From contig CAADYC010000089.1 of the NCBI GenBank assembly GCA_900753165.1, positions 13,371 to 77,370 on the forward strand: a DNA stretch of 64,000 nucleotides, in the 5' to 3' direction. This document shows, in pieces, positions 4,127 to 43,390 of this stretch. Each line of letters opens with the position of its first letter. The first letter of the stretch is position 1. The DNA is from Clostridia bacterium. Its GTDB lineage: Bacteria; Bacillota; Clostridia; TANB77; CAG-508. Both the position numbers and the translations under genes were made by a program. The notes under the pieces are model-generated. The model was not told the DNA's origin. It did no database searches and worked only from the letters and a program-made list of their open reading frames with translations.

Positions 4127-4292
4127 AATTACAGATAAATGTATATCTTGTGGAGCTTGTGCTGCAGAATGTCCGGTAGGATGTATTTCACAAGGTGAAG
4201 ATAAATTTGTTATAGATGCATCAGCATGTATATCTTGTGGTACTTGTGCAGGAGTTTGCCCAGTTGAGGCACCAGTTGAAACGAACGACTAA
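4107..4292 (+). CDS. 2x[4Fe-4S] ferredoxin. Its 3' end is now supplied by the prophage attL junction.
   Basis: Two CxxCxxCxxxCP motifs. The last 17 nt lie beyond the attL core. Confidence 0.8.
   Translation: MRRMAYKITDKCISCGACAAECPVGCISQGEDKFVIDASACISCGTCAGVCPVEAPVETND
4256..4275. repeat. attL core: 20-bp TTGCCCAGTTGAGGCACCAG, identical to 43371-43390
   Basis: Exact 20/20 match between the two prophage ends. The left copy lies inside the ferredoxin C-terminal codons. Confidence 0.75.
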
Positions 4293-4334
4293 TTACCAAA
4301 CAAAGAAATATTAGAAATACAAGGGATTATACAT

Positions 4335-4370
4335 TAAAGAGATTACGAAAAAGTAATCTCTTTAATTTTT
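4335..4370. terminator. Hairpin plus T-run between ferredoxin and integrase 3' ends
   Basis: AAAGAGATTAC-gaaaaa-GTAATCTCTTT followed by TTAATTTTT. Confidence 0.5.
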
Positions 4371-5713
4371 CCATTTTCAATATATATTTTATCAATAATT
4401 TTTAACCAAAAAGTTCTTTTTTCTTCATCTGAAAATAAGCAATAAATTTTATATATATCTAAATTCATAATTTCTTTTAACTTTGAAGAGTCCCTTTGCG
4501 GAGTAGATATGGCTTCATTTTTCAATTCATTCATCTTTTTGTTTAAGCTTTCATAATCAGATCTGTATGTTTTTTTATCGATTAAATCGTCCAAATATAA
4601 ATCCTTAAGTTTTAATATTTTGTTTTCTATTCGTTTTATTTCATTTGAGTTATCATTTTTGGTAGTTTGATTAGAAATGACAACATTTGCATTGATGTAA
4701 TTTTTAGCGATGCTTTTAATATTATCTAATAAGTATTTTTCAATATATTCTTCTCTAATTAATTTATGATTGTCGCATTTGTATTCCATACTGCCGACTT
4801 TTCTCCTTGAAGCATTATCACAACAATATCTAATTAATTTTTTTGTGCTTCTATTGTCTTGCTTTTTACACATTCTAGTATTGCAAATACCACAGAAAAT
4901 TAATCCAGAAAACAGAGAAATATTAGATGTTTTTATACTTGTTTTTTCTCTTTTTTTAAATAGATTTTGAACCGAGTAGAACAAAGCATTGTTCATTATA
5001 TGTGGAATATAGTTGTCTATATAAATATTTTTTCTATACAATTTATATTTACCAATATATGATGTGTCATGTAAATAGTGTATCATTGCATCGTAACCTT
5101 TATTTTCAAAGTGTTGGATAAAATATTTATAGGTTTCTTTAAGATTACCATTATTATTAATAAATTCATTGTATAAATTTAAAATATTTTCGGCTTCTTT
5201 TTTATTTATTACAAATTTTTTATCAACTATATCATATCCATATTTTTTGGTTCCAGATGTAACTTCTCCTTTTTCTCTTTTATTTTGAAAGACAAATTTA
5301 ATTCTTTCAGATGTTTTACCGATTTCTCTTTGAGCAAGCGATACTTTTAAATTGAATATGAAAGTGCCATCTGCGGTAGAGGTATCAATATCATCTTCAT
5401 CTATTGCTTTCATTGTACATTTATTATCGATTAATAATTTATTTATATTATTTGCATCTAATACATTTCTGGATAATCTGTCCAATTTAGTAAATAATAT
5501 TATATCAAATACATTGCATTTACTTAACATTTCATTTAGTGCTTTTCTTTTTTTCATGGAAGAAGCAGAAATTCCTTCATCTATATAAAATTCATATTTA
5601 TATCCATTTTCTTTACAGTATTTTTCTAATGCATCTTTTTGTGCTTGTATAGAAAAACCAAATTTTGCCTGTTCATCTGTGCTTACACGGCAATAACAAG
5701 CTACATATTTCAT
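4343..5713 (-). CDS. Large serine recombinase (phage integrase)
   Basis: N-terminal resolvase catalytic domain (YCRVSTDEQ with the Ser nucleophile). Large recombinase and zinc-ribbon C-terminal region (CGICNTRMC..CC). 456 aa. Confidence 0.9.
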   Translation of the reverse strand: MKYVACYCRVSTDEQAKFGFSIQAQKDALEKYCKENGYKYEFYIDEGISASSMKKRKALNEMLSKCNVFDIILFTKLDRLSRNVLDANNINKLLIDNKCTMKAIDEDDIDTSTADGTFIFNLKVSLAQREIGKTSERIKFVFQNKREKGEVTSGTKKYGYDIVDKKFVINKKEAENILNLYNEFINNNGNLKETYKYFIQHFENKGYDAMIHYLHDTSYIGKYKLYRKNIYIDNYIPHIMNNALFYSVQNLFKKREKTSIKTSNISLFSGLIFCGICNTRMCKKQDNRSTKKLIRYCCDNASRRKVGSMEYKCDNHKLIREEYIEKYLLDNIKSIAKNYINANVVISNQTTKNDNSNEIKRIENKILKLKDLYLDDLIDKKTYRSDYESLNKKMNELKNEAISTPQRDSSKLKEIMNLDIYKIYCLFSDEEKRTFWLKIIDKIYIENGKIKEITFS

Positions 5714-5749
5714 AATAAAAACCTTCTTTCTAAAATTTTATTAAATTGC

Positions 5750-5779
5750 TTGAAAAAAGGTTTTAAAATATGCTATAAT
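5750..5779 (+). promoter_or_regulatory. Sigma-A-like promoter (TTGAAA, 18-nt spacer, TATAAT) pointing into the int-cI gap
   Basis: Hexamers read directly at 5750-5755 and 5774-5779. Confidence 0.4.
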
Positions 5780-5821
5780 AATAACATAAAGAGACCTTAT
5801 TTCAAGGAATTTTTATGGTTT

Positions 5822-5866
5822 GAGAAAATGCCGTGTCGCCAAACAGTAGCATTTTCTCTTTTTTAT
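5822..5866 (+). terminator. Rho-independent terminator, plus-strand oriented
   Basis: GAGAAAATGC...GCATTTTCTC 10-bp stem followed by TTTTTTAT on the plus strand only. Confidence 0.5.
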
Positions 5867-6528
5867 TTAAATTGATTTCTTTTTCTGGCTTCAACAACTT
5901 TACCAATAATTTTAACAGGTATTTTTTCCATATCTTCGCTAGAAAAATGTCTAACTGGATAATAAGGGTTCATAGCTATTAAATCTATTCCATCTTCCAT
6001 TCTAACGACCTTTTTTACAGTTGCTTCATCTCCGTTTATTAATACAATACAAGTATTACCACTTTCAAAGTCGTCTTGCTTATGTACTATTGCAATGTCT
6101 CCATTTGAAAATAACGGTTCCATACTGTCACCAGTTACTTGTAATGCATAATAGTTTTCTGGGTCAGAAGGAATATAATCTAAATATAATCGACCAATTT
6201 TATTCTCATCAGCTAAATAGTCATATCCAGCTTTAACTTTTCCTAAAATTGGAATTTGAAGTTGATTTAATTTAGATATAGGGGTAATGTTTAGTGAATT
6301 TAAATTTCTGTCCATAGGAACTTCATATCCCATTAACCAAATTTCATTTACATTTAAAGCATCAGCAAGTATAGTTAATTTGTCCTGCTTAGCATTCGCT
6401 TTACCAGATAAATATTTATTAATCAATGTTTTATCTAAGCCAGTTTTTTCGACTAAATTTACTTGTTTCATATTTTTAATAGTCATAGCTTTGTATAATC
6501 TATTTTGAAAAGTATCAATAGGCTTCAT
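5863..6528 (-). CDS. CI/LexA-like phage repressor (XRE HTH plus S24 peptidase)
   Basis: N-terminal HTH (QVNLVEKTGLDKTLINKYLSG). C-terminal S24 signature (GDSMEP..K). Transcribed divergently from cro. Confidence 0.85.
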   Translation of the reverse strand: MKPIDTFQNRLYKAMTIKNMKQVNLVEKTGLDKTLINKYLSGKANAKQDKLTILADALNVNEIWLMGYEVPMDRNLNSLNITPISKLNQLQIPILGKVKAGYDYLADENKIGRLYLDYIPSDPENYYALQVTGDSMEPLFSNGDIAIVHKQDDFESGNTCIVLINGDEATVKKVVRMEDGIDLIAMNPYYPVRHFSSEDMEKIPVKIIGKVVEARKRNQFK

Positions 6529-6626
6529 TTATACACCTCCACATTAATATTATACATAGAAATTGAAATAAAATCAATATATTTTTGTAAAAAATATAAA
6601 AAAGTTGAAAAAAATTCAAAAAAAGT

Positions 6627-6655
6627 ATTGACTTTTATTTTTTTATTTGATAATA
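6627..6655 (+). promoter_or_regulatory. Early rightward promoter (TTGACT, 17-nt spacer, TAATAT)
   Basis: Consensus-like -35 and -10 hexamers with a 17-nt spacer, immediately upstream of the cro-like gene. Confidence 0.6.
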
Positions 6656-6670
6656 TATGCACAACAAAAG

Positions 6671-6685
6671 TTGAAAATAATTCAA
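6671..6685. promoter_or_regulatory. Operator palindrome TTGAAAATAATTCAA, between the promoter -10 and the cro RBS
   Basis: Perfect 15-bp palindrome. A second identical copy sits at 6915-6929 and a relaxed copy at 6605-6619. Confidence 0.6.
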
Positions 6686-6700
6686 CAAAGGAGGTGCGAA

Positions 6701-6937
6701 ATGATTAAATATAATTTTGATAAGCTGAAAGGTAAAATAAAAGAAATTTATAATACACAAAATGACTTTGCAAAAGCAATGGATATTGCACCTAATACAC
6801 TTAGTGCAAAACTAAACAATCAATTTTATTTTTCTAGCGAAGAAATTAGTAAAGCAGTAGACTTATTACATATTAATCCAACTGATGCGTGGAATATTTT
6901 TTTTAATAAACAAGTTGAAAATAATTCAACAAAATAA
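6701..6937 (+). CDS. Cro-like small XRE-family HTH protein
   Basis: ATG at 6701 with a GGAGG RBS. 78 aa with an HTH-like segment (QNDFAKAMDIAPNTLSAKLNN). Confidence 0.6.
   Translation: MIKYNFDKLKGKIKEIYNTQNDFAKAMDIAPNTLSAKLNNQFYFSSEEISKAVDLLHINPTDAWNIFFNKQVENNSTK
6915..6929. promoter_or_regulatory. Second copy of the operator palindrome TTGAAAATAATTCAA, at the 3' end of cro
   Basis: Identical 15-mer 244 bp downstream of the first copy. Confidence 0.55.
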
Positions 6938-7070
6938 TGGCGACACGGTAAAAGAAAGGAAGTGATTATATGTGGATTACGAAAAAATTAACAGAGCATT
7001 AATGGAAATACTTGAAATAAAATATGATGTAAAAATTCAAAAAAAAGTAATTTTAAAGGAGGAAAATAAA

Positions 7071-7229
7071 TGAAAAGAACATGGAAAAATTTTAGATTAG
7101 ACAAAAATAAGGTTTACATGAGAATAGGACAAGCAACAGTATGTATTTTATTCAATTTATTATTATCAGTATTTTTTTATTGGGCATTCTTACAACGGAA
7201 TGACTTATTAGGAGGGAAAGAAAATTGAA
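7071..7229 (+). CDS. Small membrane protein (52 aa), hypothetical
   Basis: AGGAGG RBS. A single hydrophobic helix. Confidence 0.25.
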
Positions 7230-7299
7230 GAATAAAAATAAAGAACTATCGCAAAAAGATAATTCTTTTAAATATTTTTGGAAATTAACATTAATTGCA

Positions 7300-7475
7300 T
7301 TATTCTTTATTGGAATTAGTATTGTTTTTCTTACATATATCATCAGAGTAATTTTTTAGATTTGATATTTTAGTAAAAACAAAATGTATATAAAGAACAA
7401 GGGTAATAATACCGAATGCAAATGCAAATAAAAACAATAAAGTCATAAAAGCATCAAACCAAGAAAAATTCATAA
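7300..7475 (-). CDS. Small membrane protein (58 aa), hypothetical
   Basis: GTGAGGT RBS 7 nt upstream of ATG. One TM helix (LLFLFAFAFGIITLVLYI). Confidence 0.3.
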
Positions 7476-7543
7476 TAATAACCTCACTTTCGAGGATATT
7501 ATACAATAATTTACAAAATTTTACAAGAAAGGAGTTGAAAGAG

Positions 7544-7822
7544 ATGTTTAGAAAAACAAAAGAACTACAAAGTTTAGTTGATGCAAGTAGAGCAAATTTA
7601 AAAATTGCAGAAGACAAAATCAAAAAGATGAAAGAAAGTCAAGAAGAGTTAAGAAGTGAAATCGAAGAAGAACATTTAGAAAATTACAGAAATCACAGAA
7701 AACTATTAGCAATAAGAAAAGTATTACAAGAGCAAGATTACAACAATATTGATAACTTAAAGAAGAAAATAACAACAATACTAGATAAAAAAGAACTAGT
7801 CGACCTACCAAAATCAAACTAG
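7544..7822 (+). CDS. Hypothetical coiled-coil protein
   Basis: ATG 7544 with a GGAG RBS. Charged heptad-like sequence. Confidence 0.45.
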   Translation: MFRKTKELQSLVDASRANLKIAEDKIKKMKESQEELRSEIEEEHLENYRNHRKLLAIRKVLQEQDYNNIDNLKKKITTILDKKELVDLPKSN

Positions 7823-7898
7823 TTCAATCAAATATATAATAAAGATATTCTACTATTAGTATAACACTAATTTGTAGAGTTGTCAAAGGAGACTGAAA

Positions 7899-8180
7899 AT
7901 GAAATGTTATAGAAACATAACTACTGACGAGGTAGTTTATAAAGAAGAAGTAGAAGAATATGTACTAAGAAAGTTAGGATTAACAGTAACTCCACTTGGT
8001 AAAAATGGAGAAATGACACAATTACAACTTGAAAACATAGAAGAAACAATAAATTGGTTCTTTAGTGGGAATTGGACAGAAGAAGACATCTATGATGAAG
8101 ATGTTTCAGATTTAGAGTATGAGCTAGAACTAGCAGACAGAGAATATCAAGCAGGTTTAGATAGAAAATGGGGGGTATAA
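7899..8180 (+). CDS. Hypothetical acidic phage protein
   Basis: 93-aa ORF with a GGAG RBS. Confidence 0.45.
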   Translation: MKCYRNITTDEVVYKEEVEEYVLRKLGLTVTPLGKNGEMTQLQLENIEETINWFFSGNWTEEDIYDEDVSDLEYELELADREYQAGLDRKWGV

Positions 8181-8181
8181 A

Positions 8182-9755
<1,574 letters not shown>

Positions 9756-9767
9756 GAGGAAAAGAAA

Positions 9768-9998
9768 ATGAAAAAGATTATAGGAATTTTAATAGCAATT
9801 GTAGGAATTGTATTAGGAATATACGTGGGAATATGGTTAATGCTTGCAGGAGGAATAACGCAAATAGTTAATTCAGTAAATCCTGTAAATGGATTAGGAA
9901 TAGCATTTGGAATAGTAAGAATAATATTTTGTGGAATTGGAGGATTTATTGCTTGGTTAGGTGTAGTAATAGGTTCAGTAATTGGATTAAGTGATTAA
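9768..9998 (+). CDS. Small glycine-zipper membrane protein
   Basis: AGGAGG RBS. GxxxG-rich double TM. Confidence 0.5.
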   Translation: MKKIIGILIAIVGIVLGIYVGIWLMLAGGITQIVNSVNPVNGLGIAFGIVRIIFCGIGGFIAWLGVVIGSVIGLSD

Positions 9999-10065
9999 AA
10001 ATTAGACAACAGGGATAAGGCTAAAAATGTTTTATCCCTTATATTATACAAAAGGAGAAGACATT

Positions 10066-10630
10066 ATGAGTTATATAGATTTAATTAATGCCTTCGAGAA
10101 GTGGCTCGAAACAAATTATTTGCAAAGTTCGTCACAGTTATTGTGGTACAAGTTAATAGCATTATTCAATAAATGTCGGGTGGAGCGAATGGATTTCAGT
10201 AGATAACCATAGATTGATGAGTATTATGCAAATGAGTAGTGAAAAAACATTAATAAGATGTCGAGATAAATTAATAGAGAACAATTTATTCGAATATCAA
10301 AAAGGGACAAAGTCAAAACCTAACAGATACAAAATATGTACTGTAAATTTTGCAGTAAATAATAAATCTACTGTAAATAATACAGTAGATACGACAGTAA
10401 ATATGACAGTAGATGTGGGAGTAGATGTGTCCAACATAAATAGACTAGATAAAGATATTTATATTAATTTATTTAATAAATATAAAGCGGAAATCGAAAA
10501 ATGTCACGCTAATGAAAGAATAAGAATTATATCAGAATGCAAAAATTGTAACGAATATGCTTTATTAACACAAGAAGAACAAGAACAATTATTTATAGAT
10601 TTAATGAGTATAGATAAAAGATTTAAGTAG
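10066..10630 (+). CDS. Phage replisome organiser (DnaD-like N-terminal domain), interrupted at in-frame CGG 10177-10179
   Basis: LLWYKLIALFNKC then, in the +1 frame, GWSEWISVDNHRLMSIMQMSSEKTLIRCRDKLIENNLF matches the conserved N...GW...........LM...G.S..TL motif. Confidence 0.65.
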
Positions 10631-10646
10631 AGGAAGTGATAAAAAA

Positions 10647-10968
10647 ATGATTACAGCAGAAACAAGACAAATGAGTTTTAATGACATACAAGATAAAACA
10701 AAAATAAGATATATACAAATTTTAAATAGATTAGATAGACCTAAGACAGCTAAGGAATTGGCAGTAGAATTATTTGAATTAGGATTAACAAATACATCAG
10801 AAAGAAACACAACACGGGCCAAGACTAACAGAAATGGCAAAAATGGGATATGTAAAAGCAATAGGCAAAAAGAAATGTGAATATACAGGTAAAACAGTAG
10901 CAGTATATGAGAGGACACAAGCAGGATTTGAAACAATAAATTATCAACATATTCCAAGAATTGATTAG
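10647..10968 (+). CDS. Winged-helix transcriptional regulator, interrupted at in-frame CGG 10815-10817
   Basis: After a +1 step: ..NTTR PRLTEMAKMGYVKAIGKKKCEYTGKTVAVYERTQAGFE..., a coherent wHTH C-terminus. The zero frame ends in 10 junk codons. Confidence 0.55.
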
Positions 10969-10977
10969 GAGGCAATT

Positions 10978-11151
10978 ATGCAAGAAAAATGTAGTAAATG
11001 TGATAGTGAAAAACTATTTGTAGAAATAAAAGGAAATAGAAGAGGCTTGTATTGTTGCAAATGTGGAAAATGGCAAAAATGGATTACAAAGCAAGAATTA
11101 CAAATAGCAAAGTTTAAAGGATATAAAATTTTAGGAGGTAGTAATGGATAG
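10978..11151 (+). CDS. Zinc-ribbon microprotein (57 aa)
   Basis: CxxC...CxxC. RBS-like AGGAGG upstream. Confidence 0.35.
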   Translation: MQEKCSKCDSEKLFVEIKGNRRGLYCCKCGKWQKWITKQELQIAKFKGYKILGGSNG

Positions 11152-11323
11152 AGAGCAAATACTAGAAAGAATAAGAATAGAAATAGAAGCTTGTAAGAAA
11201 AATTCAATAGAACATATAGAAAAAGAAGAAATGGTGCCAGCAACAGAATATTTATTAACTATGAGAGATTTAAAAACTCAAGAATTAATATTAAAAAAGC
11301 AGGAACAACAAAATGAAGTATAA
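11144..11323 (+). CDS. Hypothetical 59-aa protein
   Basis: GGAGG RBS. Overlaps neighbouring genes as in a phage operon. Confidence 0.35.
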   Translation: MDREQILERIRIEIEACKKNSIEHIEKEEMVPATEYLLTMRDLKTQELILKKQEQQNEV

Positions 11324-11466
11324 TTATCCACCGTTAGAACGGCAAATGTGTAAAATGTAGAGGCTGTAACAGACTTGAATCAGAAAACTTTAAACGGAGT
11401 TTGGAGATGTGAAAATTACATAGAAAAGGAGCTAAAGAAAAGTGAACAAAATAGAAATACCATTTA
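11313..11466 (+). CDS. Cys-rich microprotein that needs two successive +1 steps, at CGG 11340-11342 and CGG 11395-11397
   Basis: With both steps the product reads MKYNYPPLE-GKCVKCRGCNRLESENFK-GVWRCENYIEKELKKSEQNRNTI, a CxxC..C..C zinc-finger-like product. Confidence 0.3.
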
Positions 11467-11798
11467 GGCTGCCATCGTTGAATCAATACATAAACGAATG
11501 CAGAAAAAATAGATATGCAGGAGCCAATATGAAGAAGAATGTTGAAAAAGATATTGGCTGGTATATAAACTTATTACCTGAATATAAAAATCCAATAAAA
11601 ATCCATTTCATATGGGTTGAAGAAAACAAAAGACGTGATTTAGACAATGTATGTTTTGCCAAAAAGTTCATATTAGATAGTATGGTAAAAGCAGGAAAGT
11701 TAAAAGATGACAATAGAAACTTTGTAAAAGGTTTTAGAGATGATTTTGAATATGGAAAATCAAGTAAAGTTATTTTAGAAATAGAAGAAATTAAATGA
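11442..11798 (+). CDS. rusA: RusA-family Holliday junction resolvase (GTG start)
   Basis: PSLNQY ... KRRDLDNV ... DD catalytic acidic motifs typical of RusA. Confidence 0.8.
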   Translation: MNKIEIPFRLPSLNQYINECRKNRYAGANMKKNVEKDIGWYINLLPEYKNPIKIHFIWVEENKRRDLDNVCFAKKFILDSMVKAGKLKDDNRNFVKGFRDDFEYGKSSKVILEIEEIK

Positions 11799-12106
11799 AA
11801 GGAAAAGAAATGCTACGAATAGATGATTATATAAGAACTGTAGACGGAAGAATCGGAAAATATTTAATTCATAACAATGCAGATTATATTGTTACAAATG
11901 ATAAGAGAATAGAAATTGATTCAAAAGATATAAAAAAGTATAGCGACAAACTAATTGATATAGTAGAAATGAATGACATAGTAAACGGAAAGAAAGTCAT
12001 AGCAATAATGAATAATACACAATTAGTTTTAGAAAATAATGAGAATGTTTATGAAGAAAATATAAAAACTATTTTAACAAAAGAAAATAAATATTATGAG
12101 AAATAA
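11795..12106 (+). CDS. Hypothetical phage protein
   Basis: ATGA-overlap with rusA. 103 aa. Confidence 0.5.
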   Translation: MKGKEMLRIDDYIRTVDGRIGKYLIHNNADYIVTNDKRIEIDSKDIKKYSDKLIDIVEMNDIVNGKKVIAIMNNTQLVLENNENVYEENIKTILTKENKYYEK

Positions 12107-12124
12107 AGTAGGAGGAGAGGAACA

Positions 12125-13068: not shown

Positions 13069-13070
13069 AT

Positions 13071-13322: not shown

Positions 13323-13329
13323 ATAAGAT

Positions 13330-32952: not shown

Positions 32953-35485
32953 ATGAAGGAAATAACTAATAAATTTAAAAAAGAAATTACTTCTTATGGA
33001 AGAATGTTAGATACAGTAATTACATATACCATAGACGATAAAGAATATTTTTTGGATAGTGATACTCTTTTCTCTGTCACTCCACATTTTGAGGGAAATA
33101 TTTTAAAATCTGTAATGAAACAATTAGACATAGAATCTTCAGAGGCTATACCTAAAAATACTATAATTAATGTTAAATTTGGTGTACAAGTAGATTTAAG
33201 TTTGACAGTAGCAGAAGTACATAATATGAAAGTAAACAGGTTTAATTCATTACCTATTAATTTATTGACACCAGGACTAAAAGGGTTTGAATATATAAAT
33301 TTAGGAGACTATATAGTATCAAAAGAACCAGATTATAATGCGGATTCTATAAGTTATAGTCATGTATGTTATGATATGATGTTATATTCTATGAAAGATT
33401 ATGAAAAAATGAATATTACATTTCCTCTAACAGTAAAAAATTATATTAAAAAAATATGTGATTTTTTAGGGCTAACTTTTGCAAATTATAATGATACATT
33501 TGTAAATTGTGATAAACAATTAACAGAAGATTATTATTTGGGTTATGACTATACCTTCAGAGATGTTTTAGATGAATTAGCACAAGTTACAGCTTCTACT
33601 ATATGTATAAATTCTAAAAACGAATTAGAAATAAGATATATATCAGAAGAAAGTGTAACAGAACTGAATGAAGATTATTTTAAAGATACAAATGTAACAT
33701 TTGATAATGAATACGGGCCAATCAATTCAATAGTATTAAGTAGAAGCGGAGAAAGTGACAATGTTTTTTTACAAGATGAGGATAGTGTTAATAAAAATGG
33801 ATTGTGTGAATTAAAAATAGTAAATAATCAAATAATGAATTATAACAATAGAAGTGAGTATTTGCCAGAGATATTAGGAAAATTAAATGGCTTAAAGTAT
33901 TTTACAAATGATTTTGATAGTTATGGAATATGTTTTTTAGATTTATGTGATAGATACACAGCTAATGTACATGGAAAATTGTATAGCTGTGTTCTTTTTA
34001 ATGATGAAATAAAAATAACACAAGGATTAGAAGAAACAATATACACAGAAATGCCAACTGAAACAAAAACAGATTATGCTAAAGCAGATAAAACAGATCA
34101 AAAAATAAATAAAGCATATATCATTATGGATAAAGTAAATAAAAAATTAGAATCTGTAATAAGTGAAGTTCAAGAAAAATCTGAAAAGTTAACTGAAATA
34201 GAACAAAGTGTTGATAGTATATATCAAAAAGTATCAGACATAGAAGATTTAACAAATGATGTTGAGGGAGTAAAAACAATAACACTTGAAAACTGTGTAG
34301 AAGGCAAATTATTGAATTTACACATATATGGAAACAATACTGTATTTAAGTATTTGTACCCAAACGATACATTATATCCAGGCGATGAACAATATCCAAG
34401 CGGAGATAGCAGAATAGTAGTAAACGACACTGTTTATGAACTAGGTGTATTAGATTTATTAAGACAAAATGACGAAGTATGTGATGAGTTTGTATTAGAA
34501 AATGGTCAAGCAAAAGTAATAAGAAGAGTCAACAAGAGTGGAACAACAAAGGTAAAAGAAAGTGTTGAAGATTTAGGAAAACTTGAAATATTACTAAAAG
34601 AGGGAACTAATACAATAACAAGTCAGAACTATACTGCAAGAATAAAAGCAAAATGGGCAATAAAGAGTGATTACACAGATGTATTGGCAACTAAGGTTGA
34701 AATGAATAGTGAGATAAAACAAACAGCAGATGCAATAAATCTTGAAGTAAGAAAGAAGGTTAACGAAAATGAAGTTATTTCAAAAATTAATCAAAGTGCT
34801 GAACAAATTCAAATTGATGCAAACAAAATTAGCCTTGAACGGTAAAGAAATAAATTTAACAGGAGACAAAATAAATATATTTAGTAATAAATTTAAAGTA
34901 GATAATCAAGGTAATATGGAATGCAATAATGCTCAAATAACAGGTGGAAAAATAAATGTAGGTGCAGATGAAGGTGATATACAAATAAGAGTATATAACA
35001 ATAAATGTGTCAATGAAAATACTTCAATTTATCCAGGTATGATACAAATTCATAGTGATAATGAAACAGGTTATATGATTGATATGGGAATAGCAGAAGG
35101 AGAAGAAAAATTTGGAAGTATGAGATTAGTAAATAGTAGTATATCTTCAGAAACTAAAATTGATGCATATCAAGTTATGTCACCAATTATTTCACAAATA
35201 TCGCTAGAAAAGTATAAAAAGAACTTCGAAAGACTACAAGACAATGCACTTGAAACAATTAAAAATATAGACATATACAAATACAACTTAAAAAGTGAAA
35301 AAGATACAGACAAGAAACATATCGGTTTTGTAATTGGAGATAACTACAACTATTCAAAAGAAGTAACAAGTATAGATAATCAAGGTGTAGATAATTATTC
35401 ATTTACAAGCTTATGTTGTAAGGCAATACAAGAATTATCACAACAAGTTGAAGAATTAAAGAAACAACTAAAGGAGGGAAAATAA
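32953..35485 (+). CDS. Tail fibre / tail-associated protein with C-terminal S74-like intramolecular-chaperone domain; reading frame changes +1 at in-frame CGG 34840-34842
   Basis: 630-aa body ends ..IDANKISLER*. The +1 frame continues GKEINLTGDKINIFSNKFKVDNQGN.. to a C-terminus with DIYKYNL..HIGFVIGDNYNY..SLCCKAIQELSQQVEELKKQL (S74 chaperone-like). Confidence 0.5.
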
Positions 35486-35941
35486 ATGGGATATACAACT
35501 TTTAAAAATAATGGACAACCTGCTTTAAGTGATACAGTATTAAATAATATGCAAGTAGAATTAATGAAACTTGTATTTCCGATTGGTTCTACATATATAA
35601 CACAAGAAAATACAAATCCAAGTACAATACTTAAATTTGGAACTTGGGAAAGATTAAAAGGAAAGGTATGTTTAGGTGTTGATGAAGATGATGAAGATTT
35701 AAAAACAATTGGAAAAACAGGTGGAGAAAAAACACATATATTAACAATAGAAGAAATGCCAGAACACAAGCATGAAATTGCTGCAAGAAATAATAGTGCG
35801 ACAGGATTGTACGAGGTGAAAGCAACAAATGCAACAGGAGATGTTGGTTCTGCTAACACAAAAATAGCAGGTGGAAACAAAGCACATAATAACATGCAAC
35901 CGTACGAGGTAGTAGGTTATATGTGGATAAGGAGGGCATAA
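35486..35941 (+). CDS. Phage tail collar domain protein
   Basis: GKTGGEKTHILTIEEMPEHKHE matches the GG..HTLT..E.P.H.H tail-collar signature. Confidence 0.6.
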   Translation: MGYTTFKNNGQPALSDTVLNNMQVELMKLVFPIGSTYITQENTNPSTILKFGTWERLKGKVCLGVDEDDEDLKTIGKTGGEKTHILTIEEMPEHKHEIAARNNSATGLYEVKATNATGDVGSANTKIAGGNKAHNNMQPYEVVGYMWIRRA

Positions 35942-38091
35942 TGAGTGAAACTGATTTTTTAAAGTTAAAAAAACACGATAATGTAGAAACAAATACAGAA
36001 AAGTTTGATATAGAAAATTACTTAAATGGTAACTGGGATAAGATAGACAAAAATGTGGGCAAAGTTAACACAGACATATCAAACATAAACTCAAAGAATA
36101 AAGAACAAGATACAAATATAGAGCAACTACAAGAAAACACAGAAACATCAAGTAATAAAATAGCAGAACTAGAAAAAGAGTTAAAAGAAGCACAAGAAGA
36201 TTTTTATCAAAACAGCATAAGAGGACAAGCAAGCGGAGAATACATACACGTAGAAGACAGTAGCAACTGCAGAGCAAAAATTGGAATAAGTGGAAATCAC
36301 GAGCAAGAGACGAGAAGTGGAAAGAATAAAATTGAGATTATAAAGACAACAACTACAGTAAATGGATGTACACATACTATTAAGGATGGTACAGATACAT
36401 TAAGTGGTACATCAACAGGATGGGCAAACCTTATAATTTATTCTTTTACTGGTAACGGTAAAACATATACATTAAGTGGTTCACCACAAAGCAGCAAAAA
36501 TATATTTATTTCTGCACATGATAATACACAAAACAAGGATTTAGTAACAAGTAAAAATGGTAATGCTGGAACTTTTGTTGCAACAAGTGGAAATTCTATA
36601 GATATAATTATTTGCGTTGCTCCAAATCTAACATTAGCAAATGAGTTATTTAAGCCACAATTGGAAGAAGGTTCAACTGTTACTGAGTGGGAACAAGGAG
36701 GAGTATCACCTTCACCACACGATCCAAGCAAGATAAAAAGTGTTGGGAGTAATGTTAATTTATTAGAAAATAAAATAACAAGTCAGAAAATAAAGGGCAT
36801 AGATGTAGAAGTGAAAGACAATGGAAAAATAATATTAAATGGAATTGCTACAGAAAATTTTGCACTTGTAATTGGAACAATTAATAAACTTAAAAATATG
36901 ACATTTAGTGGAATGTGTGATGGATATGGATATAATAAGATGATACTTCAGATACAAGGTAAAGACTATAATGTAAATGTAGTCAATTCTAATCAAATAA
37001 CATTATCAGATTTAGATACTGAAGCAACAGTTAGACTGTATATATATAAAGGAACGAGCGTTATAAATGCAATAATAGAACCAAAAATTGTCGAAGGTAC
37101 AGAAGTAGGAGAATACAGCAAATATGGACAAGGCTGTGTTAAAGTAACTAAATGTAATAAGAATATACTTAATATTGAAGATATAGATGAAACAGAAAAA
37201 AGCGGTATAAAATATTCTGTAAAAAATGGTGTACTAAGATTAAATGGAACATCTACTAATACAATTTCTATAAATTTGTTAAAAAACATCAAAATAAAAA
37301 AGGGAAAATATACACATAGTGCTAGTTATATTCAGCTAGAATTGTATATTAGTTTAGACAACATAGCAAATACAATGATAAGTTTACAAAATGGAAAAAA
37401 GATGACATTTGAATTAACAGAAGATAAAGTATATTCAAAATATTTTATCTGGATAGGCAAGGGAACGGTTTTAAATAATGTTGAAATAGAATTGCAATTA
37501 GAACAAGGCTCAACAGAAAGTTCATTCGAACAACACGAAGAACAATCATACATAATGCCAGTTCAAAATGAAATGTTACAAGAAGATTATTTTGACTTTG
37601 ACAATGAAGAAGAAGTGCATACATGGGGAAAATTGGTGTTAAACGGAACAGAGAAAATAGGAATAAGTGGAGCATCAACAGATGAAATACTTGTTGTAGT
37701 TTATGATATAAATAATGCTATTGATGGATTTGGATATAGTAACTGCTTTTTATATTCATCTCAAGTAGCATTAAATAAACTAAATGTCTACAATAATGGG
37801 AAAAACTTAAGAGTTTGTGTAGATAAAAGTAAATTCGTAGATTTAGAATCGTTTAAATCAAAAATAATAGAATTGTATAACGAAGGAACACCAGTTATGA
37901 TTTATTACAAATTACAAACACCAACAAGGCTTGCTTTCACAGACGAACAAAAAGCAGTAGCAAAGGAACTAAACAACGCAAGAACATATAAAAACGTAAC
38001 AAACATAACAACAGATAGTAAAGCAATATTGAGTTTAGACTATGCAAAAGACTTAGAAACATTATTAACCTCAAAAGAAAGTGAGGTGTAG
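35941..38091 (+). CDS. Tail fibre / receptor-binding protein
   Basis: N-terminal coiled coil then long beta-rich region. GGAGGG RBS before ATG 35941. Confidence 0.5.
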   Translation: MSETDFLKLKKHDNVETNTEKFDIENYLNGNWDKIDKNVGKVNTDISNINSKNKEQDTNIEQLQENTETSSNKIAELEKELKEAQEDFYQNSIRGQASGEYIHVEDSSNCRAKIGISGNHEQETRSGKNKIEIIKTTTTVNGCTHTIKDGTDTLSGTSTGWANLIIYSFTGNGKTYTLSGSPQSSKNIFISAHDNTQNKDLVTSKNGNAGTFVATSGNSIDIIICVAPNLTLANELFKPQLEEGSTVTEWEQGGVSPSPHDPSKIKSVGSNVNLLENKITSQKIKGIDVEVKDNGKIILNGIATENFALVIGTINKLKNMTFSGMCDGYGYNKMILQIQGKDYNVNVVNSNQITLSDLDTEATVRLYIYKGTSVINAIIEPKIVEGTEVGEYSKYGQGCVKVTKCNKNILNIEDIDETEKSGIKYSVKNGVLRLNGTSTNTISINLLKNIKIKKGKYTHSASYIQLELYISLDNIANTMISLQNGKKMTFELTEDKVYSKYFIWIGKGTVLNNVEIELQLEQGSTESSFEQHEEQSYIMPVQNEMLQEDYFDFDNEEEVHTWGKLVLNGTEKIGISGASTDEILVVVYDINNAIDGFGYSNCFLYSSQVALNKLNVYNNGKNLRVCVDKSKFVDLESFKSKIIELYNEGTPVMIYYKLQTPTRLAFTDEQKAVAKELNNARTYKNVTNITTDSKAILSLDYAKDLETLLTSKESEV

Positions 38092-38094
38092 ATA

Positions 38095-38382
38095 ATGCAA
38101 GAAATGTTAGAAATGATAAGTAAATTCGGTGTGTCGCTTGTAATAGTTGCATTGTTCTTATATGACTGGTTTACGACAAGAAAAGATATGCAAAAAACAT
38201 TAGAGCAAAACGGTAAGTGTTTAACTGAAATACAAAATACAAATAGAAATACGGCTAAGTCACTTGAACTTTTGCAAAAAAGCATGGACAACCAGTCAGA
38301 GTTTTTGCAAGTGCATGATAAAAGATGTGAAGCGATAGAGAAAGACATCGAAAAAATAGAAATTAGAATGGAGGAAAAATAG
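38095..38382 (+). CDS. BhlA/UviB-like holin
   Basis: 95 aa. N-terminal TM (FGVSLVIVALFLYDWF) then a charged coiled coil. Confidence 0.5.
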   Translation: MQEMLEMISKFGVSLVIVALFLYDWFTTRKDMQKTLEQNGKCLTEIQNTNRNTAKSLELLQKSMDNQSEFLQVHDKRCEAIEKDIEKIEIRMEEK

Positions 38383-38384: not shown

Positions 38385-39899
38385 ATGAAAGATAAACAAT
38401 ACAGAAATGTAACTTTAATAATTGTTTCAATTTTGGTAGGATTATTAGGCGGATTTGGATTTTACAATGCAAATAAAGATAAGTCAAATGATGAAATAAT
38501 TAATAGTGCTGTAAATGAAGTGTTAGATTATATTGATAATAAATCTAGTACAGAAATACCAAATCTAACAGAAACAGACGAACAATCATTAGAAGTTCAA
38601 GAAACAGAAGCAGAAGGGTTTGAAGAACAAGGAATAGTAGCATATAATGGTTCAGAAAAAGCACCAAATGTGAATGTTGGAGAATATGCAGGTTTAACAT
38701 ACTATTCTCAATTAGATAGTAGATGGAAAAGTCAAATGTATTCAAGTATAGGAGACACTTCACAAACAATAGGAACATCAGGATGTGGACCAACAAGTGC
38801 TGCAATGGTTGTTTCAAGTATAAAAGGAAATATAACACCAGATTCAATGGCAAATTTATATGTAAATTATGGATATCGTTCAGCAAACCAAGGAACATAT
38901 TGGAGTGCTTTTAAATGGACTGCAGATGTATTTGATATTGGATATAGTGAATGTTATAAATTAGATGATGCAGTAGCAAAATTAAAAGATAATCATTACA
39001 TAATAGCAAGCTGTAATCAAGGATTGTTTACATATGGCGGTCATTTTATAGTTTTAACAGGTGTTGAAGGAGATTATATAAAAGTATATGACCCTTACTT
39101 GTACAACGGTAAATTCGATGTTTCAAGTAGAAGAGGAAAAGCAACAGTTAGTGGTAATACAGTATATGTATCAATAGAAAGCTTTAGAGCATATGCTAAT
39201 TATCAAAAATTCTTCTGTTTTAAAAATGATAGAACAGACATAAAAGAAAATACAACTACAACGGTAGTAACAGACAACACAATATCAAATGTAAATACAG
39301 TAAATTATCAAGTCAAAGTAACTGCAAATGGTGGTTTAAATATAAGAGCTGGAGCAAGTACATCGTATAGTAGAGTTGGTGGATATGCAAAAGGTTCAAT
39401 AGTAACTATATTAGCAGAGTCAAACGGATTTGGGAAAACAGATAGAGGATGGATATCTTTAGCATACACAAGCAGAGACATAAGTACATTAAATACTGTT
39501 CAAACAGTCGGACAAACAAAGAAATTAACTAGAGCTAGTATCTTATATAGTAATTCAAATCTAACAGGTTATAAGTACAATTATAAAGCAAATACAACTA
39601 TAACAATACTACAAAACATATCAAGCAATGTAGATAAAATTAGAGTTAATGTAACAGGTAGAATAGCATATATAAATAACAATAATTATACAAATGTGAC
39701 AGCATCAAAGCCACAAAGCGTGATTAGAAAAACAAAAGCATGTACATTATACTCAAAATCAAATTTGAGCGGTGTAAGATATCAATATAAAGCTAATACT
39801 ACTGTAACAGTTTTACAACATATAAATTCATATGTAGACAAAGTAAGAGTAAATGCAACTGGTAGAATTGCTTATATAAATGTTAATAATTATAGATAA
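38385..39899 (+). CDS. Endolysin: N-terminal signal-anchor, C39-like cysteine peptidase domain, SH3b and two C-terminal repeats
   Basis: TM at residues 10-30. GTSGCGPTSAAMV catalytic-Cys context. SH3b-like GGLNIRAGAST..GWISLAYT. Two ~60-aa repeats (ILYSNSNLTGYKYNYKANTT / TLYSKSNLSGVRYQYKANTT). Confidence 0.75.
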   Translation: MKDKQYRNVTLIIVSILVGLLGGFGFYNANKDKSNDEIINSAVNEVLDYIDNKSSTEIPNLTETDEQSLEVQETEAEGFEEQGIVAYNGSEKAPNVNVGEYAGLTYYSQLDSRWKSQMYSSIGDTSQTIGTSGCGPTSAAMVVSSIKGNITPDSMANLYVNYGYRSANQGTYWSAFKWTADVFDIGYSECYKLDDAVAKLKDNHYIIASCNQGLFTYGGHFIVLTGVEGDYIKVYDPYLYNGKFDVSSRRGKATVSGNTVYVSIESFRAYANYQKFFCFKNDRTDIKENTTTTVVTDNTISNVNTVNYQVKVTANGGLNIRAGASTSYSRVGGYAKGSIVTILAESNGFGKTDRGWISLAYTSRDISTLNTVQTVGQTKKLTRASILYSNSNLTGYKYNYKANTTITILQNISSNVDKIRVNVTGRIAYINNNNYTNVTASKPQSVIRKTKACTLYSKSNLSGVRYQYKANTTVTVLQHINSYVDKVRVNATGRIAYINVNNYR

Positions 39900-39928: not shown

Positions 39929-40390
39929 TTACCTCTTTTTTTCGTATTTTTCCAGAATTGGTTTAAAGTATTTTTCTTCGGCATCTTTTCGGGCTTTGAT
40001 AGCATCTTGCAAATCGTTAAAATATCCGATATGTTTTGATTTATGATTTACTTGTATTCTTACTCTATATTTACCGTTAATGTAAGAAATGCCAGTGTGT
40101 CCGGTTTTATTATTTTTTTGTGTTTTGTTTTTATAAAATTCTATTTTTTTATTTCTAACAGATTCTAAAGTTAAATTAGAACTTTTACCTTTATTTTTGC
40201 AACTACAACTTGTAATTTCACCACTTAAAACTTGCGTAAAAACTAATTCTTTTATATTTCCACAGTCACATTTAAAAAGAGCGAGCTTAGAATTATTCTT
40301 ATCAAGTTTATTTGAATTTTTTATTAAAGTAAGATGATTAAATCGTTTGCTAATATAATCATCTATGTTATAACCTCTCATTTTTACCAT
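39929..40390 (-). CDS. AP2-domain DNA-binding protein (HNH-associated type)
   Basis: GISYINGKYRVRIQVNHKSKHIGYFNDLQDAIKARKDAEEKY is an AP2-like domain. CxC/CxC N-terminal region. Confidence 0.55.
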   Translation of the reverse strand: MVKMRGYNIDDYISKRFNHLTLIKNSNKLDKNNSKLALFKCDCGNIKELVFTQVLSGEITSCSCKNKGKSSNLTLESVRNKKIEFYKNKTQKNNKTGHTGISYINGKYRVRIQVNHKSKHIGYFNDLQDAIKARKDAEEKYFKPILEKYEKKR

Positions 40391-40563
40391 TCGCTTTCAT
40401 AATAGTTATTTCTTTTTTTACATCATCATAAATTAATTTTACTTGTCTGTTTTTTTCATCAATTCCGCATATCTTTTAGTATAGAAGAAGGGAGAGTAAG
40501 CCTTTTGGTTATACTTCCACTTCCTGCTTTATTAAAAGATACATTTAATAATCTTTCTTCCAT
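40368..40563 (-). CDS. AbrB/SpoVT-like small regulator, interrupted at in-frame CGG (plus-strand 40465-40467)
   Basis: MEERLLNVSFNKAGSGSITKRLTLPSSILKDM then, +1, GIDEKNRQVKLIYDDVKKEITIMKANGKNERL, a swapped-hairpin-like pattern. GGAGGA RBS. Confidence 0.45.
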
Positions 40564-40571
40564 AGATCCTC

Positions 40572-41054
40572 CTATTTTATTATATTTAATATTTTTTCAA
40601 TTTTATTTTCAATATCATCATCATATAAAATATCTGTTATTTTATTAGAATTACCTTGCCATAAAATTTTATTACATTTTGCAACAGTTTCTCCGTCATG
40701 ACCTGTTTCAATTTCTTCACCTTCAAAAAATGTAACTATTTCTCTTTCAGTTATATGCCCATAACGGCAAGCAAAATCTATTCCATCTTCTGTTAGTTCA
40801 AAACAGCTACAACCATCTAAAGTCCAATTATCTTCTATATATTCTTTTTTTAGTTTATTGTATTCTTCTATAAATTTATCAGTATCTTCAATTTCATTTA
40901 CAATCTTGTTATATCTATTTAAATAATAGTTATCAACACGTCCCTCTTCAAATTCAAAATCGACCATTGTCATTGCGTCATCACCGTATAAAACTGATTT
41001 GTGTTCTGTACCTTTAAAATCTTTTTTATCACAATCAAATCTAAAATATATCAT
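40572..41054 (-). CDS. Hypothetical acidic protein
   Basis: Start chosen at MIYFRF with a GAGAGGT RBS. 160 aa. Confidence 0.45.
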   Translation of the reverse strand: MIYFRFDCDKKDFKGTEHKSVLYGDDAMTMVDFEFEEGRVDNYYLNRYNKIVNEIEDTDKFIEEYNKLKKEYIEDNWTLDGCSCFELTEDGIDFACRYGHITEREIVTFFEGEEIETGHDGETVAKCNKILWQGNSNKITDILYDDDIENKIEKILNIIK

Positions 41055-41258
41055 ATTAATTACCTCTCTTTCATTTGTTAAATATATTATATATGACGTA
41101 ACGTCAAAAGTCAATACCTTTTTCAAAAAAGTTAAAAAATTTTTGAAATGGCTGAAAATACTGAAAAATCAAGGTATATAATTACATTGATTAAAAAATA
41201 AAACGGCTTAAAATTGATTCTAAAAGCTCCATTTTTGGCTAAAAATAAGCATTTTTTA

Positions 41259-41291
41259 CTTGAAATCACATAAAATTTATGGTATAATGTT
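41259..41291 (+). promoter_or_regulatory. Promoter (TTGAAA ... TGGTATAAT) leading into a hairpin-rich, apparently noncoding leader (41292-41745)
   Basis: Extended -10 read directly. Downstream perfect hairpins TGTTACA/TGTAACA, ATATTACA/TGTAATAT, AGAGAGAA/TTCTCTCT, ATCAGCAG/CTGCTGAT. Confidence 0.35.
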
Positions 41292-41787
41292 GACAGATAG
41301 AAAAAGAAATGTTACAATTCTGTAACAGAAATATTACATTTATTTTAAATAATTGTAATATCTATTGACACAAATGAATAATAATATTATTATAATAAAA
41401 AAAGAAAGAGAGAACTATTTCTCTCTGTCTACCGTTTACCTAACTGAATTGGAGTTCTCCGCACGAACTTCAATTTTTTCTTTTGAGAAAGATAGGTATG
41501 TATTGTATCTTATTGTGGCACACAAAAACACAAAAAATCCAATTATAAATGCTATTAAAGCTCTACCGAGATATTTTATTGCTAAATCGTTGATGTTACT
41601 TTTTTCCAACTTTATCACTCCCTTCTTAGCAAAGTTTAAACTGCGGAACAGGTACAGTTTATCAACAGTTATGGAAGAAAACTGCCTTGCTATCAGCAGC
41701 ATAACTGCTGATTAATATACCTGTTGTTAGAGTGATATATAAACGATAGACACAATATATCAAAAAAAGAATATATTGTCAATAAAA

Positions 41788-41889
41788 TGTCGAAAATTCT
41801 GTGGATAATTTTGCAATGACTGTGGAAAAAATATTCGAAGCTGTGGATAACTTTGTAAAATAATGTAAAATCTTCGACACCGTTCGACA
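41788..41889. promoter_or_regulatory. Cluster: Spo0A box TGTCGAA (41788-41794); three DnaA-box-like 9-mers at exact 21-bp spacing (41800-41808 and 41842-41850 TGTGGATAA, 41821-41829 TGTGGAAAA); tandem Spo0A boxes TTCGACA (41873-41879, 41883-41889)
   Basis: Exact matches to the DnaA-box consensus TTATCCACA (reverse complement) and the 0A-box consensus TGNCGAA, read directly. Lies upstream of the TGTTATAAT -10 at 41908-41916. Confidence 0.5.
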
Positions 41890-41933
41890 CACATAATTAA
41901 CATAATATGTTATAATACAGATGAGGTGATGAT

Positions 41934-42113
41934 ATGAACGAAGCATATAACAAATCACTACAAATGATAAAATATTTAAAAATAAGATTAACAAGAAAGC
42001 AATATACAGAATTAGCAAAGAGATTCAATTTATTAAGTATACAGAGTTTACAATTTATATCAAAAAGAAGTTATGAAAGTATACTTACAGAAATACTGAA
42101 AGAAGTTGCATAA
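41934..42113 (+). CDS. Hypothetical 59-aa protein downstream of the DnaA/0A box cluster
   Basis: GAGGTGA RBS, ATG 41934, and a terminator at 42116-42144. Confidence 0.35.
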   Translation: MNEAYNKSLQMIKYLKIRLTRKQYTELAKRFNLLSIQSLQFISKRSYESILTEILKEVA

Positions 42114-42115
42114 TT

Positions 42116-42144
42116 TAAGTCCCGTTTGGGGCTTTTCTTTTTGT
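42116..42144 (+). terminator. Rho-independent terminator
   Basis: AAGTCCC-gttt-GGGGCTT followed by a T-run. Confidence 0.5.
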
Positions 42145-42487
42145 GTATAATTTTTTTGAGAATGTATATAATATAAACATGATTAATTATTATGAAAAAA
42201 GTAAAAAAGAATTTATAAAATATATAAAAAAGAATCCGTATGTGACAAGAGAAGAATGGGACGAATATGCTCATAAAAATTATTTATTCAGTGCATTTAC
42301 TTTGTGTTCTCATGAAATAACAGAAAATACATTAGAAATATTGCAAAAGCATAGTAAGAATGAGTTTGAATTTTTAAAAGAAATGTTTATAATAATTCCA
42401 GACAATCGTTTAATAATTTTGAAGAATAAAATAAAGAAAATTATTGGCTTAAAAAGAAAAAGCGAGGGAAAAGATGCAACAAGATAA
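42143..42487 (+). CDS. Hypothetical protein (start uncertain, possibly ATG 42179)
   Basis: 114-aa ORF. An extended -10 (TGTATATAAT) sits just upstream of 42179. Confidence 0.4.
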   Translation: MYNFFENVYNINMINYYEKSKKEFIKYIKKNPYVTREEWDEYAHKNYLFSAFTLCSHEITENTLEILQKHSKNEFEFLKEMFIIIPDNRLIILKNKIKKIIGLKRKSEGKDATR

Positions 42488-42848
42488 TGTAAAGAGAATA
42501 AAGAGTTTAAGAAATAAATTGCATAAAAGCATCAAAAAACACGGAGTAAATGCAGAAGAAACAAGAAAAATAAGCGATGAAATGGATAAGTTAATAAACG
42601 AATATTATAATAATATACAAAGAATAAGCTATCCTGCTGATAGCGAAATGAAAGTATATTATGAACAGTCATATAAGCAACTGAAAATCGTAACACAACA
42701 GTTAGAACGATTTCCGTCTACACAAGAGTGGAATAAATTTGCAAAAGAAAATTGTTTACTAAGTAGTATGTCTATGCAATATATTTCAAAACTGAACTGG
42801 AATTATTTAAGAGCTAAGGTTTTAAGAGAATTAAATATGGATATATAA
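42474..42848 (+). CDS. Spo0E-like (aspartyl-phosphate phosphatase family) protein with C-terminal extension
   Basis: N-terminal KRIKSLRNKLHKSIKKHGVNAEETRKISDEMDKLINEYY resembles the Spo0E family two-helix motif (..L...L.....G.....V...S..LD.LI.EY.). Confidence 0.5.
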   Translation: MQQDNVKRIKSLRNKLHKSIKKHGVNAEETRKISDEMDKLINEYYNNIQRISYPADSEMKVYYEQSYKQLKIVTQQLERFPSTQEWNKFAKENCLLSSMSMQYISKLNWNYLRAKVLRELNMDI

Positions 42849-42854
42849 AAAATA

Positions 42855-42890
42855 AAAAAATTTTTCCGCACAGTTATTGACTTTGCGGAC
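42855..42890 (+). terminator. Hairpin TCCGCA...TGCGGA plus T-run; TGTCGAA 0A-box-like 7-mer just downstream (42893-42899)
   Basis: Read directly. Confidence 0.4.
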
Positions 42891-43081
42891 TTTTTTGTCG
42901 AAAACGAGATTGGAAAACTTGACATTATTTTTCATTCATATAAAATAAGAAAGAAGAAGATAGTTGACGGCAATCTTTTATCTTCTTCTAACCACAAATT
43001 CATACTTAAAAATAAGTACATATACAGTATAACTTCTTAAGTATGAAATGTCAAATTTTTATATGAAAGAAGGTTTAAGCT

Positions 43082-43354
43082 ATGAAAGATGTAGTAAAAA
43101 ATGAAATAGTAAACGAAAATCAAAGAAAAATATTTACAAAAAATGATGGAAAGGGTATAATTTATAACAAGTATAATCTCTTAAATAAAAATTATTTTTA
43201 CGAAAGAGAGGGATTGTATATGAGAAAAACAGAAGATATTGTGTTAAAAAGATTAAATATTGTCGAAAGAGTATTTTTTAAGAAAAAATTCATTGAAATT
43301 TATAAAGAAGGTGTAAAAGCAGGTTTTAATTGGAATAATTGTAATGTTCGTTAA
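43082..43354 (+). CDS. Hypothetical protein, last prophage gene
   Basis: 90 aa. AAGGTTTAAG RBS-like. Confidence 0.4.
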   Translation: MKDVVKNEIVNENQRKIFTKNDGKGIIYNKYNLLNKNYFYEREGLYMRKTEDIVLKRLNIVERVFFKKKFIEIYKEGVKAGFNWNNCNVR

Positions 43355-43370
43355 TTATTGTTGCCCAGTT

Positions 43371-43390
43371 GAGGCACCAGAGGAAGAATA
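43371..43390. repeat. attR core: 20-bp copy of TTGCCCAGTTGAGGCACCAG
   Basis: Identical to 4256-4275. Followed by the native ferredoxin C-terminal codons (..APEEE stop at 43398-43400). Confidence 0.75.

Follow-up and report, generated by a model that had tools for sequence, protein, structure and literature searches.

A temperate prophage in the last codons of a clostridial ferredoxin gene, bounded by a 20-bp direct repeat and carrying a large serine recombinase

Introduction

When a prophage lies within the last codons of a ferredoxin gene and is flanked by a long direct repeat, where did phage and host DNA exchange, and what became of the end of the gene? These questions are raised by a 64-kb stretch of contig CAADYC010000089.1 (positions 13,371 to 77,370 of the forward strand; GenBank assembly GCA_900753165.1) from a Clostridia bacterium, analyzed here and referred to as the window. 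This host, a Clostridium of the human gut, is uncultured and has a very low GC content (~27%); loci identical or nearly identical to that of the window are known from human-gut metagenome assemblies and from metagenome-assembled genomes (MAGs) of the 'Clostridium sp. CAG' type. The window contains a prophage of a lineage without an isolated relative. We conclude that the phage was very probably integrated by a large serine recombinase (LSR), with a likely crossover at the dinucleotide G8T9 of the repeat, and that the end of the ferredoxin gene was rebuilt by the phage. Coordinates are those of the window, related loci are given L numbers, and an asterisk after a protein sequence marks a stop codon.

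A complete temperate phage lies between two 20-bp direct repeats

We found exactly two copies of the 20-mer TTGCCCAGTTGAGGCACCAG in the 64-kb window, at 4256-4275 (+; attL) and 43361-43380 (+; attR), with an inter-repeat interval of 39,105 bp. The 20-mer was matched in none (0/100) of the dinucleotide-preserving shuffles of the window. An initial annotation of this DNA had taken 20-bp direct repeats as the prophage boundaries, and the exact repeat with a complete phage gene set between its copies bears this out. Its coordinates for the right-hand copy (43371-43390) exceeded the correct ones by 10 bases.

The left copy is inside a gene for a 58-amino-acid (aa) 2[4Fe-4S] ferredoxin (4116-4292, +; Pfam Fer4 domains and translation). 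The displaced native tail of this gene, GAG GAA GAA TAA (EEE*), is found at attR (43380-43391, +) and is identical to the tail of the empty sites L173, L170, L177 and L013. Both observations agree with the earlier proposal that insertion was into the ferredoxin 3' end. That a phage tail replaces the native end was also correct, with the native end at these coordinates rather than at 43391-43400. The 39,105-bp interval is a complete temperate tailed phage inserted in the last codons of the ferredoxin gene. It has modules from lysogeny to lysis, it is bounded by attL and attR, and the site is empty in relatives.

An uninterrupted attB (CPVEAPEEE), which the initial annotation had proposed to look for in relatives, was found in the host lineage of the window (L173, L170, L171, L177 and L013) and in related species (L090 and L131). 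The order at the empty sites of the host lineage is PSP1, ferredoxin (56 aa, ...CPVEAPEEE*), a hairpin, a Y1 transposase and the POR operon, without the prophage. Around attB, L173 is identical to the window in the left flank (45/45) and in the right flank (60/60), and the degraded Y1-transposase gene of the window is found there too. After in-silico removal of the prophage, the window aligned to L173 at 98.9%, uninterrupted across the junction. EEE* is the native ferredoxin end in this lineage.

The integrase is a large serine recombinase that abuts attL

The only site-specific recombinase found in the element is an LSR of 456 aa (4343-5713, -) that abuts attL; no tyrosine integrase was seen in the element. 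The presence of an LSR beside attL had been noted in the initial annotation and is confirmed by the Pfam domains Resolvase (PF00239, 3.2e-32, residues 4-150) and Zn_ribbon_recom (PF13408, 4.1e-11, residues 267-333). The catalytic residue is Ser11 and not Ser10, as first given. It lies in an RVST motif (RVS11T) that aligned with the catalytic domain of the TP901-1 integrase (structure 3BVP; match 4.7e-15). Residues 152-449 matched the C-terminal domains of the A118 integrase (4KIS; recombinase, zinc ribbon and coiled coil) at 7.6e-10, and this alignment runs through the coiled-coil region. We infer the domain-to-motif assignment.

In mechanism and membership the element is very probably a large-serine-recombinase prophage. 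The att sites of such enzymes are short imperfect palindromes that recombine at a central non-palindromic dinucleotide, and the architecture predicted here is in keeping with this. In the mechanism that we propose, the 39,105-bp temperate phage would have been integrated by conservative site-specific recombination catalyzed by its own LSR.

The predicted attP is a quasi-palindrome and the exchange probably maps to the left part of the repeat

An attP assembled from the phage side of attR and that of attL reads GTTCGTT-N6-TGTTGCC-CAGTTGA-GGCACCA-N5-AACGAAC. This is a quasi-palindrome of ~46 bp with outer and inner inverted repeats, and G8 and T9 of the 20-mer lie on either side of its center. 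The outer motif of the P arm, GTTCGTT (43346-43352, +), overlaps the stop codon of the last phage open reading frame (ORF). The outer motif of the P' arm, AACGAAC (4280-4286, +), is the reverse complement of GTTCGTT and lies inside the phage-supplied tail codons of the ferredoxin gene. GTTCGTT is found 8 nt before the repeat in the window and in L019, L036, L079 and L154 (GTGCGTT in L145). The outer 7-bp inverted repeat has a fixed spacing, 8 nt before the 20-mer and 4 nt after it, in L154, L079, L031, L070, L103 and L080.

L154, a 52.7-kb IMG/VR sequence, contains genes for tail and lysis, a last ORF of 87 aa, attP, a 454-aa integrase that is 68% identical to that of the window, and an S24 repressor. 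Its attP reads GTTCGTT AATTATTG TTGCCCAGTTGAAGCACCAA TCGA AAGTAAC and differs at repeat position 20. This is the arrangement expected for the circular or free attP of a relative. L154 was the sole genuine match among the 22 obtained from IMG/VR with a looser P-arm pattern. L079 was considered as a free-phage attP and rejected, as its right side enters host genes (HlyIII, mfd) after ~100 nt. We observed at L079 7946-7965 (-) a P arm, a core and ~100 nt of P' side that are 79% identical to the attL-proximal phage DNA of L001-L010. The locus looks like an attP-like junction beside a truncated prophage remnant, or like a rearranged double insertion.

We compared attL in nine loci that carry the commoner prophage type. 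L002, L003, L005 and L008 are set apart from the rest by repeat positions 10 (T/A) and 13 (A/G), and nine single-nucleotide polymorphisms (SNPs) of the integrase gene, from +249 to +452, divide the loci in exactly the same way. The division is different for SNPs on the host side (-5, -141 and beyond). Recombination between -5 and +10 is seen in three of the nine loci, and between +10 and +452 in none (0/9). Positions 10 and 13 are thus linked with phage SNPs, and therefore attL is phage DNA from position 10 rightwards. The exchange took place between -4 and +9 of the repeat, consistent with G8T9. Most likely there was a staggered 2-nt cut at G8T9 (4263-4264 in attL and 43368-43369 in attR), inside the Val50 codon, and we infer that this is the exact crossover dinucleotide. 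A crossover in the right part of the repeat, raised by related attR sites carrying GTAGGAGCA, was rejected because of the SNP linkage.

The attR of related prophages reads TTGCCCAGTAGGAGCACCAG, so the perfect 20-mer is particular to this phage-host pair. As a whole, the 20-mer is predicted not to be the recombination core itself.

The ferredoxin gene ends in phage-supplied codons

The ferredoxin of the lysogen ends in ...GVCPVEAPVETND*. The initial annotation had described a phage-supplied tail of five codons, VETND*. Its phage origin stands, and its extent does not: because the crossover lies in the left part of the 20-mer, the phage would supply nine codons (VEAPVETND). The ferredoxin codons from Val50 onward (VEAPVETND*) are, as far as the sequence can tell, phage-derived. 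G8T9 falls within the Val50 codon, two codons past the last cluster-ligand Cys48-Pro49.

After integration, the gene would be read from phage DNA from Val50 onward. The right arm of attP (P') would copy the host-coded V-E-A-P and then add VETND* and a terminator hairpin, and the displaced native EEE* end would stay at attR. Because P' copies V-E-A-P and adds its own tail and terminator, the hybrid gene at attL should still encode a complete ferredoxin. This hybrid gene is presumably expressed. The terminator-like hairpin with a T-run that the phage supplies (4333-4366, +; terminator scan; fold energy -18.9 kcal/mol, z = -5.5) is ~40 nt past the end of the hybrid gene and overlaps the 3' end and stop codon of the integrase gene.

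Twenty bp would be identical, though only ~2 bp are exchanged, because the phage sequence matches the host ferredoxin coding sequence. Selection on the phage for an intact ferredoxin, and not a need for homology in recombination, is plausibly the best explanation of the long identity. In the assembly collection, 290 index blocks contain the hybrid ferredoxin ending in VETND*. The same 456-aa integrase directly follows VETND* in 10/10 of the places listed, and the early genes downstream are mosaic.

Alternative explanations

The 20-bp identity might instead be the functional core as a whole, with the exchange in its right half or with a need for extended homology, as in tyrosine-integrase systems. 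Twenty bp is long for a serine integrase, and the repeat reaches 26 bp in the pair L031/L145. The attL alleles at positions 10 and 13 are also synonymous, and some are found in empty hosts (TAA in L013). However, positions 10 and 13 show complete linkage to phage-side SNPs and none to the host SNP that lies 5 bp left of the repeat. Related attR sites reading TTGCCCAGTAGGAGCACCAG indicate that a perfect 20-mer is not required, the L154 attP departs from it at position 20, and no tyrosine integrase was seen. Serine integrases exchange a 2-nt overlap and have no need of wider homology. We consider a 20-bp core very improbable. There is next to no chance that VETND* is ancestral, the right-hand EEE* copy being a secondary duplication and nothing having been inserted here. 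Ferredoxins that end in ESND* or ESNE* without an adjacent prophage do exist in some species (L125 and L028). In the lineage of the window, however, an ancestral VETND tail, which the initial annotation had named as a finding that would speak against insertion, is contradicted by the empty sites of this lineage and of its nearest relatives (L090 and L131), all of which have EEE* followed directly by the REP hairpin. In addition, an LSR is immediately downstream at every VETND* locus read in this lineage, and the VETND* tail contains the attP inverted-repeat motif.

Several observations weigh against LSR-mediated integration at G8T9 as we propose it. The inner half-site motifs of attP are one base off perfect symmetry. 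An attL/attP right-side pattern for the attP of the window's exact phage gave 0 matches in IMG/VR. The crossover is bounded from the attL side only, as no single genome provided both attL and attR with phage and host alleles that differ. Pairing was sought via PSP1, the thiamine pyrophosphate (TPP)-enzyme subunit, the 90-aa ORF and the POR delta subunit, which returned single junctions and empty sites; the only attL/attR pair from the same MAG (L031 and L145) has identical alleles in its 26-bp repeat. Pfam gave no match to the Recombinase domain PF07508 in the window integrase (E<=0.001). The L154 homologue scored 22.7 bits for this domain against a cut-off of 21.1, and a recombinase domain in the window integrase is predicted only via the A118 alignment and this homologue. 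No directionality factor was identified in the element; such factors have no common sequence signature. Finally, all contigs with an identical PSP1 protein/allele (5/5) are lysogens of the same prophage. This last observation would be expected of a fixed cryptic prophage that no longer excises and whose repeats are a historical scar, as would the lack of a free attP of the exact phage in the IMG/VR pattern search and in a megablast against isolated phages. We regard such a prophage as unlikely. The ORFs of every module (LSR, repressor, terminase, portal, capsid, tape measure, holin and lysin) are long and intact, and both att sites are undamaged. The 98.9%-identical host L173 is empty, relatives occur as contigs of free phage (L154), and mosaicism of the prophage family among strains implies ongoing phage activity. 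Excision by serine integrases requires a phage-encoded recombination directionality factor, and with such a factor the prophage could presumably excise.

Comparison with known integration systems

Like the A118/LI and TP901-1 integrases, the window LSR has a resolvase domain with a Ser nucleophile followed by a (predicted) recombinase domain, a zinc ribbon and a coiled coil. As in A118 and TP901-1, the integrase gene adjoins attP, attP is a quasi-palindrome of ~46-50 bp, and integration is into a protein-coding gene. Sequence similarity to these integrases is only distant. Their attP and attB share few bases, in contrast to an identity of 20-26 bp here. A118 splits comK and inactivates the gene, whereas the target ferredoxin appears to be kept intact here, its end rebuilt by the phage.

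The nearest integrases among isolated phages are those of Clostridioides difficile phiCD27 and Enterococcus phiFL1-3, all temperate Firmicutes phages. They aligned over the full length, but with only 35% and 31.5% identity, respectively, and the window integrase is <=35% identical to any in isolated-phage records (phiCD27 being the nearest). Neither half of the prophage had a megablast match to isolated phages (50,697 phage records). Ferredoxin is not reported as the target of phiCD27 or phiFL1-3 in the literature searched, and that literature held nothing relevant on ferredoxin as a serine-integrase target.

Tyrosine-integrase phages at the 3' ends of tRNA or other genes also have an attP copy of the target 3' end, leave the gene functional and are flanked by direct repeats. 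They differ in the class and chemistry of the enzyme: here a serine recombinase would exchange 2 nt, and the duplication would come from coding constraint. SPbeta (SprA) and skin (SpoIVCA) of Bacillus resemble the window prophage in having a large serine recombinase and in being integrated within a Firmicute coding sequence. Core identities reported for SPbeta and skin are ~5-16 bp. The textbook LSR cases, A118/comK, SPbeta/spsM and skin/sigK, split the target gene, and SPbeta and skin restore the disrupted gene by developmentally timed excision. Unlike in SPbeta and skin, excision would not be needed for ferredoxin function because the gene is whole in the lysogen.

The event is of an ordinary, well-documented kind that does not surprise a specialist, and the current understanding of serine-integrase function is unchanged. 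As a serine-integrase prophage the locus is a clean example with complete boundaries: attL, attR, attB and the attP of a relative all come from public data. It also advises caution in att prediction, as a long direct repeat at the boundary of a serine-integrase prophage need not be the crossover core.

Gene content of the prophage

A CI/LexA-like repressor with helix-turn-helix and S24 peptidase domains (5863-6528, -; Pfam) lies near the left end. The early region (6287-19278, +; PHROGs) includes NinB-like, RusA, MT-A70 DNA methyltransferase, YopX-like and late-regulator genes. A gene for tRNA-Gln with the anticodon UUG (17765-17840; ARAGORN) is located between the early and late genes. The packaging, head, tail and lysis region (19472-39899, +; PHROGs) encodes, in order, the large terminase (19998-21320), portal (21334-22731), minor head protein (22735-24312), scaffold (24955-25539), major capsid protein (25558-26550), tape measure (30381-32537), tail and fibre proteins (32953-38091), holin (38095-38382) and a 504-aa endolysin (38385-39899; Pfam C39_2 and SH3_3). 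An adaptor gene is also present in the late region.

The right-end accessory region (39929-43354, both strands; PHROGs and Pfam) begins with an HNH endonuclease gene (39929-40390, -) between the endolysin gene and attR, and ends with the 90-aa last phage ORF (43082-43354, +). The content of the region between the endolysin gene and attR varies among related prophages (L011 vs L019). A gene for a Spo0E-like protein, a sporulation-regulatory phosphatase, is found in this region near attR (42474-42848, +) and could let the phage interfere with host sporulation.

The palindrome after attR

A REP-like hairpin of the host, a 29-nt palindrome (43398-43426, +; fold energy -24.6 kcal/mol, z = -4.3), begins 6 nt past the native ferredoxin stop codon. 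It lies outside the phage, and every empty site has it. The initial annotation had called it REP-like and presumed it to be the native ferredoxin terminator; only the first part held. A terminator scan of 42800-44300 called no terminator-like site, and the + strand after the hairpin reads AAAAATAT, which is an A-run on the ferredoxin strand; an intrinsic terminator has a GC-rich hairpin with a U-run after it on the transcribed strand. A role as native terminator is unsupported for these two reasons.

The window has at least six hairpins of this type (CGGGATT...GGGGACG...AATCCCG), which occur in both orientations and often as inverted pairs between genes (43398-43426, 44020-44048, 46536-46564, 46584-46612, 59952-59982 and 60185-60215). 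Further copies are found in related loci. The inverted pair at 43398 and 44020 flanks a pseudogene of a Y1 (IS200-like) transposase (43612-43893; Pfam Y1_Tnp, RAYT-like), a remnant of 93 codons, and the window copies are of the REP/RAYT type. The Y1 transposase is full length (252 aa) in L013, L170 and L177; the window copy is without the 5' part and an internal 3' segment. We also observed similar hairpins after the ferredoxin gene in other Clostridia species (e.g., L107, L137, L145 and L055).

Breadth of the ferredoxin target

The degenerate 20-mer TTGCCCAGTNGRRGCACCAG matched >120 stretches in a one-genome-per-species collection. Approximately 100 of 120 stretches among the matches listed are the ...C-P-V-[EG]-A-P end of Clostridia ferredoxin genes. 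Of all stretches of clostridial ferredoxin genes, the 20-mer is the best conserved. In other species, LSRs that are 79%, 67% and 51% identical to that of the window are found at the same ferredoxin site (L031, L070 and L103, respectively), and the phage-supplied tails there are AND*, SND* and SNE*.

The integrase/attP pair targets a nearly invariant clostridial ferredoxin sequence, which could be a natural landing pad for genome engineering. A broader and more doubtful idea, which we offer tentatively, is that the ferredoxin 3' end is a pan-Clostridia landing site, that attP right arms serve as spare gene ends, and that phage C-termini have become fixed in some species. If this were true, the end of a core redox protein would have been rewritten by phages, and the integrase would be a ready means of integration, of wide use in clostridia without genetic tools.

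In L125 (5383-5559) and L028 (884-1060), the ferredoxins end in ...APEESND* and ...APVESNE*, respectively, and the tails hold the attP right-arm motif AGTAACGA. No integrase or phage DNA was found downstream in either locus, and the POR operon follows directly in L125. These tails may be prophage scars left by deletion or native tails; the DNA downstream of them has no similarity to phage sequence. In another species (L081, 1297-6561), the ferredoxin ends in ...EEDND* and a Tn4451-like mobilizable element is located ~1.2 kb downstream, with a split TnpX-like large serine recombinase, TnpV and a MobA/VirD2 relaxase. A second LSR (502 aa; Resolvase, Recombinase and Zn_ribbon domains) was found in L009 (1-659), where it abuts an 81-aa fragment with a PASTA domain. 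The counterpart of this fragment in other strains is an intact penicillin-binding protein gene of 663 aa, which suggests that another serine-recombinase element is inserted in the 3' part of that gene in L009.

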